This document shows positions 13,714 through 21,537 of a DNA stretch of 64,000 nucleotides, piece by piece (the first letter of the stretch is position 1; every line of letters starts with the position of its first letter). Under the pieces are notes generated by a model that made no database searches, was not told where the DNA came from, and was given only the letters and a program-made list of their open reading frames with translations. The stretch is from Candidatus Moraniibacteriota bacterium (GTDB taxonomy: Bacteria > Patescibacteriota > Minisyncoccia > Moranbacterales > GCA-2747515): contig JALVQA010000013.1 in assembly GCA_027031495.1 (NCBI GenBank), forward strand, positions 5,714 through 69,713, written 5' to 3'. The position numbers and the translations under genes are program-made.

Positions 13714-14520
13714 CTATTTTCCAATAATAAGAGCATTCCACATATCACGCAGATATTCCATCGGATACTTGATAGAATTATCGTCATTATCACCCGTTGA
13801 ATTTGAAGTAATTTCCAAAAACTCGTTATCAAAGAAAGCGTTACCATCTTCAGCATTTCTAAAATGAAAAACTAACTCATACTTTTGAACATCAATAGGG
13901 TTTCCATTTTTTGAGAATATTGTTTCCTTTACAACACGTCTTACGCTCTCAAATTCTATAGAGAAAACTTGTCCCAACCGGTCACTGTACACATTGACAG
14001 TATGATATTTTTGAAGTTCCCTGTACTGGTTTGGCGTAACACGTGTTATAAGGCGTGTGCCACTATTGGCAAACATGGAAAAGAGAGTATCTCCTGTATT
14101 CACGGAAGAATCTTTTACTTTTGGAACTTCATCAATAACGCCGTCTTGCGGAACGTAGATTTTGTAATTATCAAGCAAATTATTTAAAATGCTTATTTCC
14201 GTTCGTGCAGAAACATTTTCCTCTGCAAATTCTTCAAGTGTAGCAATACGCTCTCTTATTTTTGTCGCATCAATAAGCACTGCAAGTTCACCCCTCTTTA
14301 CATGCTGACCAGAAGATACAAGAATTTCCTTAATTTTCCCAGAAACCTCAGAAGAAACTGAAACATTTTTTTTATCAACATAAAAGAATATTGGGCTACC
14401 AATTGTTTGAAGTGTATTCATCTTTCGTGCAAGTGCCTGCGTTGACACAAAAAGGACAAATAAAAAGATGAGGATAAAGGCGAAAACATTGAAAAGCGCT
14501 TCTTTTAAATTTTTATTCAT
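13714..14520 (-). CDS. HlyD-family periplasmic adaptor (membrane-fusion protein)-like
   Basis: 268 aa with an N-terminal TM anchor and a biotin-lipoyl-like hairpin (VSGKIKEILVSSGQHVKRGELAVLID). Confidence 0.55.
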   Translation of the reverse strand: MNKNLKEALFNVFAFILIFLFVLFVSTQALARKMNTLQTIGSPIFFYVDKKNVSVSSEVSGKIKEILVSSGQHVKRGELAVLIDATKIRERIATLEEFAEENVSARTEISILNNLLDNYKIYVPQDGVIDEVPKVKDSSVNTGDTLFSMFANSGTRLITRVTPNQYRELQKYHTVNVYSDRLGQVFSIEFESVRRVVKETIFSKNGNPIDVQKYELVFHFRNAEDGNAFFDNEFLEITSNSTGDNDDNSIKYPMEYLRDMWNALIIGK

Positions 14521-14548
14521 AGTAATAGAATACTTATTTGTAAATCGT

Positions 14549-14956
14549 TTACTTAAACCTCCCTCTCAAGAGAAATGAACCGAGGAGAAAAATTGTAATG
14601 ACAACCCATATAGAATTAAAAAATGTTGACCAAAATTCCGGTGGGTTATACCACCCAATTACAAGACTTGTAAATGACAGCAGAATAATAAGCATATGTG
14701 GCCAAATCCACTTCATAATGGGATCAATGTTACTTCTTCTTGATGTTGTTGCGATCCACCTCTCCTCCGTATTAAAAATAACAGAAAAAAGTCCCATAAG
14801 GTAAGGATAAAAACTAGCATACGCTGTTGCCATAGTGGATAAACGCATAGCCTGTCCTAAAAGGAGCCATGTAAGAGAAAAATAAAGAAAAAAGAACGGG
14901 AGGTAATGAACAAAATACCAGAGACACTTGTTTATTATTTGACAAGTGTGCAGCAT
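14549..14956 (-). CDS. Small polytopic membrane protein (about 4 TM helices), hypothetical
   Basis: 135-aa hydrophobic ORF directly upstream (minus strand) of the HlyD-like gene. Confidence 0.4.
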   Translation of the reverse strand: MLHTCQIINKCLWYFVHYLPFFFLYFSLTWLLLGQAMRLSTMATAYASFYPYLMGLFSVIFNTEERWIATTSRRSNIDPIMKWIWPHMLIILLSFTSLVIGWYNPPEFWSTFFNSIWVVITIFLLGSFLLRGRFK

Positions 14957-15060
14957 TTTTGATAAAAAAAGTAACCTATTTGAATACTTTTTATTCTTAG
15001 TGCTTTTTAGTACGGCGCCATACCACTAGAACACCGTGGCAAATAAACATTCTCAATACA

Positions 15061-15089
15061 TTGACTTATGCACACAAAAATGCTACGAT
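15061..15089 (+). promoter_or_regulatory. Candidate sigma70-type promoter for tRNA-Lys
   Basis: TTGACT (15061-15066), a 17-nt spacer, then TACGAT (15084-15089), about 46 nt upstream of the tRNA. Confidence 0.35.
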
Positions 15090-15135
15090 GGCAATCAGTT
15101 ACAACCACTTACACGTTGTCACTTTCAAAATACAT

Positions 15136-15208
15136 GGGCGCATAGCTCAGTCGGTAGAGCAACGGCCTTTTAAGCCGATGGTCGGGGGTTCGAATCCCTC
15201 TGCGCCCA
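15136..15208 (+). tRNA. tRNA-Lys (anticodon UUU)
   Basis: 73-nt cloverleaf with acceptor GGGCGCA/UGCGCCC, D-arm GCTCAGTCGGTAGAGC, anticodon loop cuUUUaa, T-arm GGTTCGAATCC. No CCA is encoded. Confidence 0.9.
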
Positions 15209-15832
15209 CAAAGAAATAAAAACAAGCTCTTGGCTTGTTTTTTAATTATCAATGCTATAAACGCGGTAGTTTATACCTGACTTCACTATTCTTCAGAGGA
15301 ATATAACACTTTACTACTTGCTGTTATCAACCATCACCGCGTTTGAATTTGACATAGATAAATCTGATATCAGCTTACTTAATTTTACCTTACTGCTCCA
15401 TACATTCTAAAAACTTGCCGACAATGACAAGATGTTTATCACTGTCTTTAACTACGACTACATCGTCGTCGGAAGGAATAGCTCTCCTATGGGAATTAAA
15501 AACTCTATAAACCTTCAAAATTCTTGAAAAGCTTAATAAAGCGACTGAGAGAATGCTACTCCCTCAGTCAAAACGTTACTCCACGAGCAAATCCTTTTGC
15601 TCGTGGAAAAAATTTACCCTTCCAAAATCTCCTTCCATGAAGATTGGAAGGGCTTACCAATGACCTTCTTGTCATAGACCAGAGCGTGAGAGCATCAATC
15701 AACCTCCTCAAGGTCGCTCCGTCTGCCCCACGCCCATGAACAAGCACGGCGGAGGGGCTTAGCGCCGATAACTCATCCTCTAAGAGCATCCCTTGCAGAA
15801 AGGAATGCTCTAAATGAATAAGATGGCTACAA

Positions 15833-16966
15833 TCACCACCTATCGGTAGTGATTCCACCGCGAGATGCCGGGTCATTCGGGTCTGGGATATCATACTCTC
15901 TATTGAATATGACTTTCTCTCCCATTGTGGCACATACCCTTATGGTTGTGCCTGAGCCGAAATAAAGGTCCCGATAGCCACCAGCGGGTCTATACCCGTC
16001 AGCGCTCTCGTTGCGAAAGTGATTTCTAACAAATCTTATAGAATCACTTTCCCTTTCGGTTACCTCTACGGACCACTGCTCCCGGGGGATTTCAATCTCT
16101 TCAACTTTTTCCCCCACTGCTACAAAGGTATCAGTGGTTACTTTCAGGACAACATCAAACTTTTCGTCCCTGAAAGTTGTGCCGGCAGGTAACAACTTGC
16201 GCTGTTGTACCTTTTTTTCCATAAAAGCTTTTACGGGAATGTCAATGGAGACATCCTTTCCGTAAACTTTTCTTTTTACTGACTCAGTTTCAATTCTAAC
16301 CTCGTCAGCAATTAGAAATGTTTCATCCTCAGCAGGTCTCCCATAGGAAGCAACCGCCTTTGCGGCGATGTATTCTTCGAGCTGAGAATTACCCACTTTC
16401 CCATCAAAAATAACCTCGGTCGTTTTTGCTGGGGAGAACATCGCCCTTTCCTCAAGGAAAGTGACTGGACCAATATCAAGACTTATCGATCCGTCCATCT
16501 CCCCCTTTGGATCTGGTTTGACCCTAATGTCATAAATATGCGCATCAATCACATGGATGCACCTCTTGGCATCATATCTGCCGGCAGCAAGAATGATTTT
16601 TTCATCATCATTTACCTCCAGCACGATATCCTCCGGAACAAATATCTGACTATTCTCCATGTCAGGAATAATGTCCCCAGACGCCACCATTTCATCTATG
16701 CCATGGTGGCTACTATATCTTATGAGATGTTCCGGATCTATCTTTACCGTCCTTGGTTGAATGACTTCAGCAACCCGCGCTATAACAACCTTGTCAAGTT
16801 CGCGAATTACCTCTAAAACAACCTTGCAATTTGCATGGTTGTTTTTTAGCACGTCCATACCACCGGACACGATAATCCATTTATCATGCCTTCTTTTGAT
16901 AATGCAGTCCCTTGCATTTTTTTTGCTCGGGCTCAACTCCGAGATTTTAAAAATCAGTTCTTTCAT
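15833..16966 (-). CDS. Hypothetical 377-aa cytoplasmic protein of unknown function
   Basis: Long ORF with a GGAG ribosome-binding site 7 nt before the second ATG (MKELIFKIS...); an upstream ATG at 16984 is also possible. No family recognised; there is a C-terminal RFVRNH (R-x4-H) motif. Confidence 0.6.
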   Translation of the reverse strand: MKELIFKISELSPSKKNARDCIIKRRHDKWIIVSGGMDVLKNNHANCKVVLEVIRELDKVVIARVAEVIQPRTVKIDPEHLIRYSSHHGIDEMVASGDIIPDMENSQIFVPEDIVLEVNDDEKIILAAGRYDAKRCIHVIDAHIYDIRVKPDPKGEMDGSISLDIGPVTFLEERAMFSPAKTTEVIFDGKVGNSQLEEYIAAKAVASYGRPAEDETFLIADEVRIETESVKRKVYGKDVSIDIPVKAFMEKKVQQRKLLPAGTTFRDEKFDVVLKVTTDTFVAVGEKVEEIEIPREQWSVEVTERESDSIRFVRNHFRNESADGYRPAGGYRDLYFGSGTTIRVCATMGEKVIFNREYDIPDPNDPASRGGITTDRW

Positions 16967-17079
16967 CTTTACTCCCTGCGCCATGGACGGCGCGTTGAGG
17001 TTGAACCACTACCCTCCATGAGAGGGTAGACTAGACGTCTATGTGCCCGCAACTTGGAAAGTTGCCGGCACAATAAAAG

Positions 17080-17125
17080 TCCCGAGCAAGTGATGTCACC
17101 ACAACATCACCGCTCGGGAAAAAAG
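17080..17125 (-). terminator. Terminator-like hairpin downstream of the DUF1874-like ORF
   Basis: Stem tcccgagc ... gctcggga with an inner stem gtgatgt/acatcac, followed on the minus strand by CTTTTATT. Confidence 0.3.
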
Positions 17126-17233
17126 TGTTTTTTATGTCGTTACCGACTTTCGGGGAACCACCCCTGCGCACGGAACACTAACCGCACGCCCGTGGATAGC
17201 CGCCACGGACTTGGATTGCCTCGCCGGCGACGG

Positions 17234-17548
17234 TTAGGAAACCGTCACGAGGTACCACTTAATGGTGGCACCCTCCGGAAGGCTGGTTGCACCTTCCAGC
17301 AGACGAGGGCCGCGATACTGGCCCACCAGCACCGCCTCGCCTTTCTCAAGGGAGACGGTTACACGCTGGCAAGGCACAGCAACGCCGAGCTGCTCACCAA
17401 GGACGGCGGCAGTCTCGGCGTGACCGACGGCAGAGTCGAAACCCTGCGCGACGGCCTCGCGAGCCTCGTCAAGCGAGACCTCCTTGATCATGACTGACGC
17501 CGGAAAAGACGCCAGCATGTTCAAAGAAAAAGCGTTGAGCAGTTTCAT
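17234..17548 (-). CDS. Small GC-rich ORF resembling DUF1874 (viral AcrIII-1 / host Crn2 cyclic-tetraadenylate ring nuclease family) - tentative
   Basis: 104 aa (MKLLNAFSLNMLASFP ... AVGHAETAAV ... RVTVSLEKGEAVLVGQ...) with a GGAGGA ribosome-binding site 8 nt upstream. The N-terminal NAFSxNML-type motif and a mid-protein His recall the STIV B116 / SIRV1 gp29 family, but this is from memory. One 60-nt stretch counts 70% GC versus about 43% in the neighbouring gene. Confidence 0.45.
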   Translation of the reverse strand: MKLLNAFSLNMLASFPASVMIKEVSLDEAREAVAQGFDSAVGHAETAAVLGEQLGVAVPCQRVTVSLEKGEAVLVGQYRGPRLLEGATSLPEGATIKWYLVTVS

Positions 17549-17599
17549 CGCTCAACTCCTCCGGATTAACGCACCGGGGAACAGGTTCTTATTGTACTC

Positions 17600-19100
17600 G
17601 TTCATACATCACTGCATAAACGAGCGGTCACCAATGACCGACCACTTCACTCTTGGGTAACCAAGAGCTTATAGGCCTTTTTCAAACCTGTACTTTCGCG
17701 TCCGCAATTCACCAAGGCTTGCGGAGGCCCAAATTTGCCACTCTTCCGAGCGGCACGGTGTAGACAAAGCAAGGAGGAATCCTTTGTCCACACGGTGTCG
17801 CCAAGAAGAATTTGTGCGATTGGTTCTGAGAGGTCTGTACTCTCTACCTCCACGCGAGAGGGTTTCTCGTGGGAAGGATAAAGAGGGGGAGAAGTGTGCA
17901 CCACACGCTTCTCCCCGAAATAACCATGCGTGATTTTTTGTTATCCCCCCTCACGCTGGGGGCTTCCCGCTAGGCAGCTTGTTGTTTCTGCCTAGCGAGA
18001 AAAATCAGTTGGGCGGCACGGTGGTGCCGGGTGGCACCCCCGCGATTATTAAGGAAGCGCTGGGCCGTATTCGGCCCAGCTTCCTTTAAAATCTTTTCAA
18101 CCTTGCGCTCAATCCACGTTTTTTGCATATTCTCTCCCTCCCCATTAACTGAGGAGGGCCTCGTTTTGCCCCTCGCCGTGCGGGGCGTTTAATGTGTCCA
18201 ACGGGCGGCGAACTCCCGTTGGAAGAATTCTGTGCTCTCACCCGAGAGCGCTGTGGAGGCAATGCGTGTTGTCTCTACAGCGCTATGGGTGAAAGATTAA
18301 GTTGTTAAAGAGTCCCTCCACCAGGCAACGCTGCGTGCTGTCTGTGTGGGAGAGTCCCGTTTCGTGAGGGAACCGTAACTGGCGAATTTGTACGCCAGTG
18401 AACTGGGGGAAACGCAAAGGGATTGTTATATGACTTCTCTCCCCCTTTCCCCGCAGATCACTGCCACACAAAGCGTCAGTGCTTCTTTGGTAGGTGTCTT
18501 TTCTGCTTTTGGAGCGACCTTTTAGAGTGGCTCACGGCATGAGTGTGTGATACAAAAAAGCGATCGGGAGACGTCCTCTCATGTAATCGTTACCTGCACA
18601 CTGCAGATATTTCTCATCATAAGAAGAGATCTCCCGATCGCTCTGTTATTGACAACGGCCACCTAATGCGCCCGCGTCGTGCTTTCCTGTAGTAAATCAG
18701 AAAGACTCTCTCCTCGCCTGTCACACATCTCGTGTGATTTCTCTCATTACACTGCCTAAAGTGTAGTGAGAGAAGTTTTTTGCAATAAATTGTCTAAAAG
18801 AACGTGCCCTCAGTCCGTGTCCGTGTCTATCTCAGTGTGAGCTTATAATAGCACACATCCACATCTGTGTCAATACCCTTACTGGAGATTTCTGTGTGCT
18901 ATCACTACTTCTGACACGCACTCTATACTACCCTTCATTACTGTACTGGTGAGAGTATAGCACATATATATTATCATGTCAAGTACTTTAGGCATATCTT
19001 TTGTATCGCGCTTTTGATTGGGTGCGTACGTGATGAAGTTGTCAATACCTGCCGTTTTTATCATCTCTACACAAGCGCCGTGCACTGTGCTATAATCAGT
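17600..19100. other. ORF-poor, hairpin-dense, GC-enriched region: candidate large structured ncRNA or degraded mobile-element remnant (class unknown)
   Basis: About 1.5 kb with no ORF over 85 aa on any frame in otherwise gene-dense DNA, and many perfect stem-loops (17970-17995, 18053-18084, about 18135-18165, about 18200-18225). There is a 12-bp perfect long-range complement (18559-18570 with 18631-18642). Confidence 0.25.
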
Positions 19101-19157
19101 AATCACATCTTTTGCGCCTTTTGTGGTAGTATGGAATTATCATAAACAACACAAAGT

Positions 19158-20072
19158 ATGGCACTCAAAACAATCACAACGGATTTCCTTACGTGGATTG
19201 ATGTTGACCAGCCAACGGCGCACGATATTGAAACGCTACGTTCGCTCGTCACAATTCACCCGCACGCATTCAAGGAGTTTTCCATCCCAACATCACGCGC
19301 GCGCGTTACTCAGTACCCTAATGGCATTTTTCTCGCACTCCACATCCCACTCTACAACAAAGACGAGCATGCAACATACCAGGCGGAGTTTGACGCTATT
19401 ATTACGGAAACGCACATCATTACCGGTCATGTTGATGCAATCTACCAGCTTGATGCTTTTTTTGAAAAGTTTCAGCAAAACAAAGAATTGCAAACGGATG
19501 ACATTGGCAAGGGGCCCGCATACCTTTTACATGCGATTCTTACCATTTTGATTGATACGTGTTTTCCGCGCGTTGAGCATATTGCTAAAAAAATTGACGC
19601 TGTTGAGGTTGGTGTTTTTCACAACCACGAAGATCACATGGTGCGCGAAATCTCCAACGTAAAACGTGATATTATTAACTTTCGTCGCGCCATCATGCCA
19701 CAGCGCGCGATTATAGAGTCTCTTATGCGCAAAGATCACCGCTTTATTCCGCGCGAACTTCATCCTTACCTCTATGATCTCGTCGATGCAAATACACATC
19801 TGTGGCACATGCTTGAAAGTCACAAGGAGGCAATTGAGTCATTAGAAGATACGAACGACACACTCCTCTCGCACAAGATTAACGAGAAAATGCGTATTAT
19901 TACGATTTTTTCTGCAATCATTCTTATCCCAACGCTTTACGTAAGCACGCTCGGCATCAGTGCCGATATTCCACTTCATGACCATCCGCATAGTTTCTGG
20001 ATTCATGTCAGTATCATGTTCGTTATCGGTGTACTCACCATGCTTTTCTTCAAGTGGCGACGGTGGATTTAA
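19158..20072 (+). CDS. CorA-family (MIT superfamily) membrane protein, divergent: no canonical GMN motif
   Basis: 304 aa with a CorA-like cytoplasmic domain and two C-terminal TM helices; the loop reads LGISAD where YGMNF is expected. Confidence 0.6.
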   Translation: MALKTITTDFLTWIDVDQPTAHDIETLRSLVTIHPHAFKEFSIPTSRARVTQYPNGIFLALHIPLYNKDEHATYQAEFDAIITETHIITGHVDAIYQLDAFFEKFQQNKELQTDDIGKGPAYLLHAILTILIDTCFPRVEHIAKKIDAVEVGVFHNHEDHMVREISNVKRDIINFRRAIMPQRAIIESLMRKDHRFIPRELHPYLYDLVDANTHLWHMLESHKEAIESLEDTNDTLLSHKINEKMRIITIFSAIILIPTLYVSTLGISADIPLHDHPHSFWIHVSIMFVIGVLTMLFFKWRRWI

Positions 20073-20088
20073 TTTTACAGAAAAACTT

Positions 20089-21537
20089 ATGACACTTCAT
20101 CTCTACAATACGCTTACAAAGAAAAAAGAGGTTTTTGTGCCGTGCAAAGATGCTACCGTAACGATGTATGCGTGCGGACCGACAGTTTACAACTACGCAC
20201 ACATCGGCAATCATAAATCTTTTACAACGGCGGACATTTTGCACCGCACACTCTTGGCGTTGGGGTATAAGGTGCAGTTTGTTATGAACATTACCGATGT
20301 CGGACACCTTACAGATGACGATATTGCGCAAGCCGATAGTGGCGATGACAAAATTGAGGCGGCGGCACAGCGCGAGGGTAAAACACCGCAAGAAATTGCA
20401 CACTTCTATGAAGACGCCTTCGTGCGCGATGCGGCGCGTCTTCATTTTTTGCCACCTACCGTTTCGCCACGCGCAACAGAGCATATTGATGACATGATTG
20501 CAATGATTCAGAAGCTTATTGACAACGGGCATGCCTACGAAGTAAACGGCAATGTGTTCTATGATGTAACGGCATTTCCCCGCTATGGTGCGCTCAGTGG
20601 CAACACATTGGAGAATCTCAAAGTCGGCGCACGCCTCAGTGAGGAACACCCGGATAAGCGCAATCAGTGGGATTTTGCACTCTGGCTCAAAGCACCAGAA
20701 AATCACATTATGAAGTGGTCGTCACCATGGTCTGTCGGTTATCCCGGCTGGCATATTGAGTGTTCGGCGATGAGCACACGCTATCTCGGTGATACCATTG
20801 ACATTCACCTCGGCGGCGAGGATCACGTTTTTCCGCACCATGAGGCGGAGATCGCACAAAGTGAAGGTGCGACGCAGAAACATCCCTTCGCGCGCTATTG
20901 GATACACACGCGCCACATGCTCGTCAACGGTAAGAAAATGGCAAAATCGGCGGGAAATTTCTATACACTTGCCGATATTAAAGAGCGCGGGTTTAGCGCT
21001 GAAGACCTACGTATTCTCTACTTTCTTTCCCACTATCGTTCGCAGATGAACTTTACATGGGACTCTCTCGCACAAGCGCGCAAAAACCGCATGAGCATTG
21101 TCACAACCGCACAACGCCTTCGCACATACAGAGATGCACAGGTTATCGGCACAGAAACAATTGATACGCAGTTTATCTACAGCGACTTTATCACAGTACT
21201 TGCAGATGATCTTAACACACCACAAGCAATAACCGTAACGCTCTCTTTTCTTTCTCAAGTCAACGCAATGATTGACGCCGGCACGCTTGCAAATGCCGAT
21301 GAAGCATATACCCTTCTTGAGAGAATGAATGATATTCTCGGCATCACACTCTTGCCACATGATGCACCTATTCCGGCAGAGATTCTCGCCCTTGTGAGAG
21401 AACGTGATGCGGCGCGTGCGCGCAAAGACTTCGCGCAAAGCGACGCACTTCGCGATCGCATCATTGCAGCCGGCTATACCGTTACAGATACACCTGACGG
21501 CACACACATTACAAAAAACACGCCAGAAGAAGCGTAA
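20089..21537 (+). CDS. cysS: Cysteine--tRNA ligase
   Basis: 482 aa from the internal ATG (MTLHLYNTL ... CGPTVYNYAHIGNH) with a KMSKS-type KMAKS motif; the 44 codons upstream in the ORF track are not CysS-like. Confidence 0.95.
   Translation: MTLHLYNTLTKKKEVFVPCKDATVTMYACGPTVYNYAHIGNHKSFTTADILHRTLLALGYKVQFVMNITDVGHLTDDDIAQADSGDDKIEAAAQREGKTPQEIAHFYEDAFVRDAARLHFLPPTVSPRATEHIDDMIAMIQKLIDNGHAYEVNGNVFYDVTAFPRYGALSGNTLENLKVGARLSEEHPDKRNQWDFALWLKAPENHIMKWSSPWSVGYPGWHIECSAMSTRYLGDTIDIHLGGEDHVFPHHEAEIAQSEGATQKHPFARYWIHTRHMLVNGKKMAKSAGNFYTLADIKERGFSAEDLRILYFLSHYRSQMNFTWDSLAQARKNRMSIVTTAQRLRTYRDAQVIGTETIDTQFIYSDFITVLADDLNTPQAITVTLSFLSQVNAMIDAGTLANADEAYTLLERMNDILGITLLPHDAPIPAEILALVRERDAARARKDFAQSDALRDRIIAAGYTVTDTPDGTHITKNTPEEA

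Follow-up and report, generated by a model that had tools for sequence, protein, structure and literature searches.

A hairpin-rich, gene-poor interval in a Candidatus Moraniibacteriota genome holds a covarying RNA leader of a predicted ring-nuclease gene and is probably a mosaic of expression signals

Results

The locus and its gene-poor interval

We analysed a 64-kb stretch of a Candidatus Moraniibacteriota contig (the window), in which a tRNA-Lys gene and the CorA gene (corA) enclose three predicted genes on the minus strand, namely a 121-amino-acid (aa) open reading frame (ORF), a 383-aa ORF and a small gene of the DUF1874 family (Table 1). Between the DUF1874 gene and corA lies an interval, 17549-19157, which a first-pass annotation made from the letters alone had read as a candidate large structured non-coding RNA of unknown class. 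Here we describe a 195-nt RNA leader directly upstream of the DUF1874 gene that is supported by covariation and most probably belongs to a published orphan structure, the DUF1874 motif, and we argue that the interval as a whole is probably a mosaic of promoters, a terminated transcript, spacer hairpins and this leader.

Long reading frames are missing from the interval, as had been claimed at first pass with a ceiling of 85 aa: this is the length of the longest start-to-stop frame, followed by one of 75 aa, and no stop-to-stop frame exceeds 97 codons. Recoding of TGA, TAG or TAA yielded nothing gene-like in 17549-19157 (maximum 202 codons, reached by one frame), and the NCBI annotation of the source contig calls zero genes there; the Logan gene call alone lists a 52-aa and an 85-aa ORF, each of which is a singleton cluster. 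The elevated GC content ascribed to the interval applies from ~17000 to ~18550 (0.52-0.60) but not to 18600-19157, which with 0.41-0.46 resembles the flanks (0.42-0.47) and is as AT-rich as the host. The break between the two lies near 18500.

The stem-loops listed at first pass are all present (Table 1, the last of them at 18741-18775), and so is the long-range complement reported there, which pairs 18554-18583 with 18618-18647. Across 16960-18460, the z-scores of minimum free energy (z) for 120-nt windows lie mostly between -3 and -6.7 on both strands, compared with a mean of -0.24 (standard deviation 1.09) in 88 windows elsewhere in the 64 kb, of which two fall below -3 and none below -4. 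The 825-nt stretch 17736-18560 taken as a whole reaches z = -9.5. [quoted passage not shown]

Known RNA families do not account for the structure. At gathering thresholds, cmscan of the whole window reported the tRNA-Lys only, and a search of 16800-19400 at E values up to 10 gave five chance-level matches to unrelated eukaryotic or plastid families. The proposed kinship with known large RNAs found no backing in Rfam 15, in which no family, including GOLLD, ROOL, HEARO, raiA and the group I and II introns, matched at E = 10; the reported absence of RNase P, tmRNA and signal recognition particle signatures was borne out, no covariance model (CM) of Rfam 15 matching for any of them.

Table 1 Features of the locus in window coordinates
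Feature	Coordinates	Strand	Evidence or remark
tRNA-Lys(UUU)	15136-15209		cmscan; left bound of the island
Orphan 383-aa ORF	15833-16984	minus	downstream of the DUF1874 module, between tRNA-Lys and CorA
Terminator-like long hairpin, CCCGAGCGGUGAUGU...ACAUCACUUGCUCGGG then ACUUUUAUU	17075-17122	minus	z = -6 to -6.7
Cloverleaf-like element, closing stem and three hairpins, ~105 nt	17128-17236	minus	alignments A8 and A9; starts at the DUF1874 stop codon
DUF1874 / STIV_B116-like gene, 104 aa	17234-17548	minus	Pfam PF08960, E = 1.4e-11
Multi-stem 5' leader of the DUF1874 gene	17546-17740	minus	alignment A4, model R1
Helix sequestering the Shine-Dalgarno (SD) sequence	17556-17580	minus	GGAGGAG (17556-17562) pairs with UCCCC (17576-17580), directly after P1'
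Motif core: P2, cUAUAAg, P3 hairpin, uGAArUg, P2'	17628-17693	minus	model R2, 52.5 bits, E = 5e-13
85-aa ORF	17647-17904	minus	longest start-to-stop frame of 17549-19157
GC-rich lineage-specific array of long hairpins	17741-18460		z = -3 to -5.7
Hairpins of the array	17758-17793, 17886-17916, ~17963-18002 (14-15 bp), 18059-18080 (extension 18053-18084), 18136-18158, 18197-18223, ~18240-18292, 18378-18399		fold
Possible 52-aa basic micro-ORF, MQKTWIERKVEKILKEAGPNTAQRFLNNRGGATRHHRAAQLIFLARQKQQAA	17970-18128	minus	ribosome-binding site GGGGAGGGAGAG inside hairpin 18136-18158
Strong intrinsic terminator, ~84-94-nt branched hairpin then UUUUUUG	18548-18647	minus	inverted repeat I1; 120-nt z -5.9 on minus, -2.0 on plus
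Candidate ORF-less transcript or attenuated 5' leader	18548-18947	minus	predicted from promoters and terminator
15-bp hairpin then GUUUUUUG, terminator-like	18741-18783	plus	z -5.7 on plus, -2.3 on minus
Near-consensus sigma-70 promoter, TTGACA, 17-nt spacer, TGnTATTAT	18845-18873	minus	11/12 plus extended -10
75-aa ORF	18879-19106	minus	second-longest start-to-stop frame of 17549-19157
Near-consensus sigma-70 promoter, TTGACA, 17-nt spacer, TGnTATACT	18954-18982	minus	11/12 plus extended -10
CorA promoter, TACACA, 17-nt spacer, TGnTATAAT	19068-19096	plus	10/12 plus extended -10
CorA gene	19158-20072		Pfam PF01544, E = 4e-49; right bound of the island

A covarying leader precedes the DUF1874 gene

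DNA similarity between the window and related loci (designated L002, L003 and so on) covers ~130-180 nt upstream of the DUF1874 start and ~100-270 nt past its stop, and reaches no further. The six closest leaders, those of the window, L002, L003, L004, L060 and L062, were aligned over ~195 nt and folded with RNAalifold (alignment A4). In the resulting structure a 5' hairpin and a GNRA-capped hairpin are followed by the long-range helix P1, helix P2, the internal loop UAUAAG/UGAARU, helix P3, two inserted hairpins and the junction ACAAUAAG. The consensus holds 49 pairs in seven helices, 26 of them with compensatory changes, and 93.5% of the cells are paired, values that none of 500 column shuffles matched; moving the partners by one to three columns as a control lowered the number of compensatory pairs from 26 to 2-8. 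Model R1 gives the window leader 212 bits. The strand signal is likewise clear, with 48 G-U against 3 A-C pairs and a sense strand that is more stable than the antisense strand by 12-35 kcal/mol in all six sequences.

The leader co-diverges with the DUF1874 gene downstream of it, while the upstream neighbours in the homologous loci are unrelated and include ORFs. Covariation supports the leader, and conservation ends with its 195 nt. Of the 1609 nt of the interval, about 195 (17546-17740, minus strand) stand as a covariation-supported leader, and the claim of one free-standing RNA of 1.5 kb is not supported.

At the 3' end of the leader, the SD sequence is buried in a helix that directly follows P1' (Table 1). 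Pairing reaches 96-100% in helices 6 and 7 of A4, where pair 178-192 covaries, being GC in four sequences and CG in two. The DUF1874 start codon itself stands within a hairpin loop (17534-17556, minus strand, GUUGAGC-gAUGaaac-UGCUCAAC); L003, L060 and L062 share a conserved sequence for this hairpin, and a U-rich run after it occurs in the window alone.

Within the leader lies a core of ~70 nt, which is found more widely and is ordered P1, GAAWA, P2, cUAUAAg, P3 hairpin, uGAArUg, P2', RAAAUAA and P1'. In 444 kb of DUF1874 loci, R2, a CM of the core, made 20 matches in Patescibacteria, each of them in sense orientation and immediately before the start of an ORF, and a strict descriptor found 17 instances against 0-1 in shuffled sequence. 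The genes after the core matches are mostly DUF1874 homologues, and the motif of the window ends at the ATG at 17548. Across the 20 core sequences (alignment A10), 94.8% of the cells pair, with a covariation score of 0.976 that falls to 0.229 after shuffling; the sequence of P1 differs in nearly every member, and both conserved loops, the near-invariant cUAUAAg/uGAArUg and GAAWA/RAAAUAA, are present throughout. In 879 kb of viral DNA preselected for the conserved letters, which served as a control, the best R2 score was 22 bits, against 47-62 bits for most members. A loose sequence pattern had pointed to the motif in 107 IMG/VR contigs; these matches were rejected as chance because none of them fits the structure, the best R2 score being 22 bits.

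L007, L012, L013 and L050 each have an unrelated ORF between two copies of the core, and no second copy besides the one in Table 1 was found in the 64-kb window. In L050, the copy at 195-263 precedes a 175-aa ORF (275-802) with DEDDh-exonuclease-like motifs (FDAETNGL ... HNPLFDSE) and no Pfam match, and the second copy precedes the DUF1874 gene at 1214. The other motif-preceded ORFs (L007 3348-3740, L012 1211-1744 and L013 3399-3740) are mutually unrelated, and no homology was detected among 20 cassette proteins.

The leader most probably belongs to the DUF1874 motif class, to which it was matched by the published text description only. This motif has been described as a structure of several stems whose internal loop contains many nucleotides of high conservation, found in sequence from uncultured organisms as potential 5' untranslated regions, often in consecutive intergenic regions in the order RNA-ORF-RNA-ORF; no function was assigned, and a role resembling that of integron attC sites was floated by its authors as speculation (Weinberg et al. 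2017, Nucleic Acids Res 45:10811; PMC5737381). The multi-stem form with its conserved internal loop is found in the window leader, with seven helices, and in the 20 core sequences, and the position upstream of genes on the sense strand in 20/20 R2 matches and 17/17 descriptor matches. The consecutive arrangement occurs in the four loci with two copies, and the window has one copy. Rfam 15 returned no family of this name or shape on the window or on 26 related loci, and nothing relevant on a 301-nt leader segment together with these loci, even at E = 5-10. In the literature consulted we found no later paper that discusses the DUF1874 motif or connects it with the ring-nuclease protein, and no report of a cyclic-oligoadenylate riboswitch.

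The DUF1874 gene is bounded by conserved structures

The DUF1874 protein of the window has 613 database homologues and matches the PDB entries 2j6b, 2x4i (SIRV1 protein 114), 6scf and 2j85, with the 'avGH' of its predicted catalytic GH motif aligning to 'siGH'; the histidine of this motif, H43, is invariant in 31 homologues. The family comprises the AcrIII-1/Crn2 ring nuclease, which degrades cyclic tetra-adenylate (cA4), the alarm signal of type III CRISPR, and its conserved histidine is H47 in SIRV1 gp29 (doi 10.1101/778746). With the PF08960 fold and the GH motif, the gene product is a predicted member of the AcrIII-1/Crn2 ring-nuclease family.

Downstream of the gene stands a cloverleaf-like element, for which alignments A8 and A9 (six loci) give 26 predicted pairs, four of them compensatory, at high sequence conservation. 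It had no match in Rfam and recurs in L002 (497-605), L003 (1410-1521), L004 (1428-1538), L060 (910-1020) and L062 (676-788). Because this element stands at the stop codon and the leader at the start codon, the DUF1874 gene is bounded by conserved structures on both sides. The module is closed by a terminator-like long hairpin (Table 1), which is present twice in L002 (~610-660 and 968-1013, 85% identity), the second copy standing after the next, unrelated 63-aa ORF; this arrangement suggests a reusable end-of-cassette element.

Promoters and a predicted ORF-less transcript next to corA

The AT-rich part of the interval next to corA holds divergent promoters. Sigma-70 sites with 11/12 consensus positions occur four times in the whole window, and two of these sites form a tandem leftward pair at 18845-18982. 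A stretch of 250 nt in this divergent block (18845-18982 and 19068-19096) holds TGTGCTAT four times, with copies on both strands.

Leftward of the tandem pair stands a strong intrinsic terminator, the hairpin of which has a perfect 13-bp base (AGCGAUCGGGAGA / UCUCCCGAUCGCU). A transcript from the promoters to this terminator would measure ~290 nt if started from the proximal promoter (start site near 18838) or ~400 nt from the distal one (start site near 18947). In the minus-strand fold, a 294-nt RNA from the proximal promoter (18545-18838) has z = -7.3, and the ORFs within 18548-18947 reach 8-19 codons at most and lack an SD sequence; the candidate transcript had no match in Rfam. From this prediction, 18548-18947 may be a small-RNA gene of its own or a leader subject to attenuation. 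The terminator-like hairpin of the plus strand at 18741-18783 also forms a stem-loop within the predicted minus-strand transcript. The interval is thus split internally by a strong minus-strand terminator (18554-18647 plus U6) and by the GC break near 18500.

A lineage-specific hairpin array separates the predicted transcript from the leader

Between the terminator and the leader, long GC-rich hairpins follow one another over ~700 nt (Table 1). The folding energy of 17736-18560 is -369.5 kcal/mol on the plus strand and -347.1 kcal/mol on the minus strand, which gives no strand preference. Homologues of this part were not detected: 17740-19157 had no match in phages or plasmids by BLASTN in distant mode, the leader was all that tblastx recovered when the region was compared with ~60 related loci, and the stop-to-stop frames had no significant match in Pfam, NCBIfam or PHROGs.

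Comparable long hairpins, unrelated in sequence, stand immediately upstream of the motif in L003, L004, L060 and L062 (z -5.5 to -9.3), and because of this recurrence hairpin-packed spacers look like a trait of the module. The spacer hairpins of L003 and L062 are rich in G-U pairs on the sense strand, which suggests selection for structure. Such spacer hairpins may serve as terminators, stabilisers or insulators.

The possible 52-aa micro-ORF in the array carries a strong GGAGGGAGAG ribosome-binding site. It has no family match and no similarity to a 75-aa ORF found at the same position in L003, and because it is an orphan with a perfect 9-14-bp hairpin inside, its coding status is unproven.

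The DUF1874 module lies in a probably foreign island

The order corA-cysS-dnaB-recR follows to the right of the interval, and the best named relatives of the CysS protein of this Patescibacteria (CPR) host are from Moranbacteria (~57% identity). The nearest relative fetched, L065 (CysS 70% identical), keeps corA-cysS-dnaB-recR, with a 61-nt spacer and different genes upstream of corA; tblastn with these genes found no remnant of them in the window. Because the left neighbourhood of L065 differs and the GC content deviates, the stretch from tRNA-Lys to corA appears lineage-specific and foreign. A CorA-based scan of GTDB genomes yielded no relative. The last 23 nt of the tRNA-Lys gene are not repeated (up to three mismatches), no direct repeat brackets the island, so that an att site was not found, and none of the ten ORFs tested from 13714 to 21537 has a recombinase match in Pfam.

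For the 383-aa ORF downstream of the DUF1874 module, the sole match among 5.8 billion proteins is the ORF itself. Exhaustive HMMER searches returned weak, repeat-like matches in multiple stretches to proteins of 1872-2155 aa, which suggest a repeated beta-type domain; as an orphan with such matches, it was rejected as a candidate integrase. Similarity of the window to L002 breaks off exactly at 16963, where this ORF starts.

Sister DUF1874 modules adjoin two tRNA genes (L005 819-990), a tmRNA gene (L061 1253-1606), trigger factor and NusA (L004 2197-5916) or the ribosomal proteins L10 and L7/L12 (L062 3397-4487), and the module of L004 forms a GC-rich patch in a contig of 0.44 GC overall. Taken together, this looks like a recurrent small-island lifestyle of DUF1874 modules in Patescibacteria. 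An independent 2704-bp contig (L001, Logan SRR13622960) is 100% identical to window positions 15626-18329, its ends falling inside the hairpin array (18329) and inside the 121-aa ORF (15626); this element or sister elements are present in the Logan runs SRR13622960 and SRR13622958. Contig ends seemed at first to fall regularly ~1.1 kb upstream of DUF1874, a pattern that failed once more loci were added.

Discussion

The alignments establish the structure of the leader, the strand on which it folds and its link with the gene downstream, and the signals of promoters and terminators can be read from the DNA itself. We hold it to be probable that a small GC-rich module was acquired horizontally and that the interval, a mosaic of four parts, is the non-coding portion of this module, transcribed leftward; this is our preferred explanation. 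In the AT-rich divergent block, two tandem promoters would fire leftward and one rightward for corA. A transcript or leader of 290-400 nt without an ORF would then end at the terminator 18548-18647. For the ~700 nt of lineage-specific hairpins, with at most one micro-ORF among them, the most likely role is that of terminators, attenuators, stabilisers or insulators placed between units of expression, as in the sister modules. Finally, the 195-nt leader is most likely a cis-acting mRNA element of the predicted DUF1874 ring-nuclease gene, in which the conserved rod (P1, the GAAWA/RAAAUAA loop, P2, the UAUAAG/UGAARU loop and P3) would be recognised, through its purine-rich internal loops, by a ligand or a protein, and the SD-burying helix next to it would set the translation of the ring nuclease. 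In this mechanism we infer the transcription, the regulatory read-out and the binder.

Several points weigh against this explanation. The promoters and terminators of the interval are consensus matches only, and a strong terminator stands between the tandem promoters and the DUF1874 gene, the own promoter of which was not identified. The island is marked as a mobile element neither by an att repeat nor by an integrase. No homologue that would allow a covariation test was found for 17741-19157, and this part may still hold a lineage-specific RNA. The 52-aa ORF might be a real gene and would then shrink the non-coding part, and the SD-sequestering helix is documented in six closely related large variants only.

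The reading of the first-pass annotation, that the whole or most of the 1.5 kb is one large ornate RNA of a new class like GOLLD, ROOL or HEARO, has in its favour an ORF-poor stretch with exceptional predicted structure, two very strong promoters aimed into it and an island setting, like that of a mobile element, close to a tRNA gene. We nevertheless regard it as very improbable, and for 17549-19157 as a single RNA it is not supported: no Rfam family matches even at E = 10, a transcript from the promoters would meet an intrinsic terminator (18548-18647) after ~290-400 nt, the GC content breaks near 18500, and the hairpins of 17736-18560 fold as well or better on the opposite strand. In addition, the predicted fold consists mostly of independent local hairpins with no long-range architecture, and in loci with the same leader and gene, what lies upstream is unrelated and includes ORFs of 75-179 aa. 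A decayed coding sequence of a degraded mobile element, with leftover terminators as its hairpins and no function now, is a further reading of 17741 to ~18550; the orphan genes of the island, its want of integrase and att sites, and a middle part with neither strand preference in folding nor homologues would fit such a remnant. This account is improbable as well, given that neither the protein-family searches with the stop-to-stop frames nor tblastx against 60 related loci found anything in the middle part, that the proteins upstream of corA in the nearest relative find no remnant by tblastn, that coding DNA in the window is far less dense in hairpins than this part (z down to -5.7), and that the motif in sister loci is preceded by spacers comparably packed with hairpins but unrelated in sequence. 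The pseudogene that the first-pass annotation had named as its own alternative is unsupported by tblastx, tblastn and protein-family searches.

Opposed to an mRNA-level role is the idea, raised for the DUF1874 motif by its discoverers (PMC5737381), that the conserved element and its flanking hairpins are single-stranded DNA recombination sites like integron attC, marking cassette boundaries in an array that lacks an integrase. The published occurrence in consecutive intergenic regions and our four loci with two copies around an unrelated ORF speak for it, as do the ORFs after the motif, which are mutually unrelated 'dark matter', and the mosaic pattern of the window and L002, whose similarity is lost at 16963, where the next ORF starts, and in which the terminator-like hairpin recurs after successive ORFs of L002. 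One RYYYAAC...GTTRRRY pair, reminiscent of attC core sites, is present at 16931-17006. No other pair occurs in 16900-19200, and this one, which bridges the start of the 383-aa ORF, is not part of the motif and lies near the breakpoint at 16963 but off it; a lone pair is compatible with chance (expectation 0.36 per 2.3 kb), and 17007-19200 contains none. Integron attC sites recombine as a folded bottom strand, and an attC travels with the ORF upstream of it. By contrast, the element described here folds on the sense strand, as its G-U pairs tell, is linked to and co-diverges with the gene downstream while its upstream neighbours differ, and in its large variants includes the SD sequence in a covarying helix. 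A hairpin bounded by core sites, a bottom-strand fold with upstream linkage, or an IntI among the ten ORFs of 13714-21537 was not found; no tyrosine recombinase lies within ~5 kb, and the element is single-copy in the window. We therefore consider recombination sites unlikely, and we favour a cis-acting mRNA element because of the sense-strand fold, the co-divergence with the downstream gene and the SD-sequestering helix.

With the leader taken as a cis-acting mRNA element, the orphan motif gains a context. It was published in 2017 as an orphan structure, and the DUF1874 protein was shown to be a ring nuclease only later. To this our analysis adds that the motif folds on the sense strand, stays with the gene that follows it, stands next to a helix in which the ribosome-binding site is buried and lives in small foreign modules beside tRNA or tmRNA genes of Patescibacteria, four additions that make mRNA-level control of an anti-defence gene a testable hypothesis. 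A much bolder proposal, to which we give a very small chance, is that the leader is a sensor RNA, a riboswitch or protein-responsive element, which mobile elements of Patescibacteria place before anti-defence genes and which, before a ring nuclease, could answer to a defence-related signal such as cyclic tetra-adenylate or its breakdown products. If this were true, the anti-CRISPR enzyme would be translated only when needed, and the leader would be the first RNA found to sense a cyclic-oligoadenylate signal and the first case of an anti-CRISPR gene under control of the riboswitch type. For the scanning of genomes, the locus illustrates that a long ORF-free stretch packed with hairpins can be a mosaic of promoters, terminators and spacer hairpins with one short genuine RNA motif.

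Compared with known systems, the interval shares with the large ornate RNAs (GOLLD, ROOL, HEARO and raiA) that it is ORF-free and highly structured and lies in a mobile-element-like setting near a tRNA gene, and it differs from them by the missing CM match, the conservation limit of 195 nt, the internal terminator and local hairpins without strand bias. Like the attC sites of integron cassette arrays, it presents a structured element between short, unrelated ORFs that look promoter-less, with mosaic breakpoints at ORF boundaries; unlike them, the element is of the sense strand and linked downstream, is more complex than a bulged hairpin, has core sites only at chance level and has no IntI detected nearby. 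The arrangement of the leader, an aptamer-like rod closed by P1 and followed by an SD-burying helix, with the start codon 8-40 nt downstream, resembles SD-sequestering riboswitches and protein-binding leaders such as those of ribosomal proteins, but the genes after the motif are diverse mobile-element genes and not those of one metabolic pathway; a mutually exclusive alternative pairing was not established in the leader, and its candidate expression platform is seen in six related sequences. Its closest counterpart is the DUF1874 motif itself, of which the window leader would be an expanded, single-copy form that also comprises the 5' hairpin, the GNRA-capped hairpin, the two inserted hairpins and the SD-sequestering helix, and for which the present data favour a role at the level of the mRNA over the attC-like role that its authors had considered.

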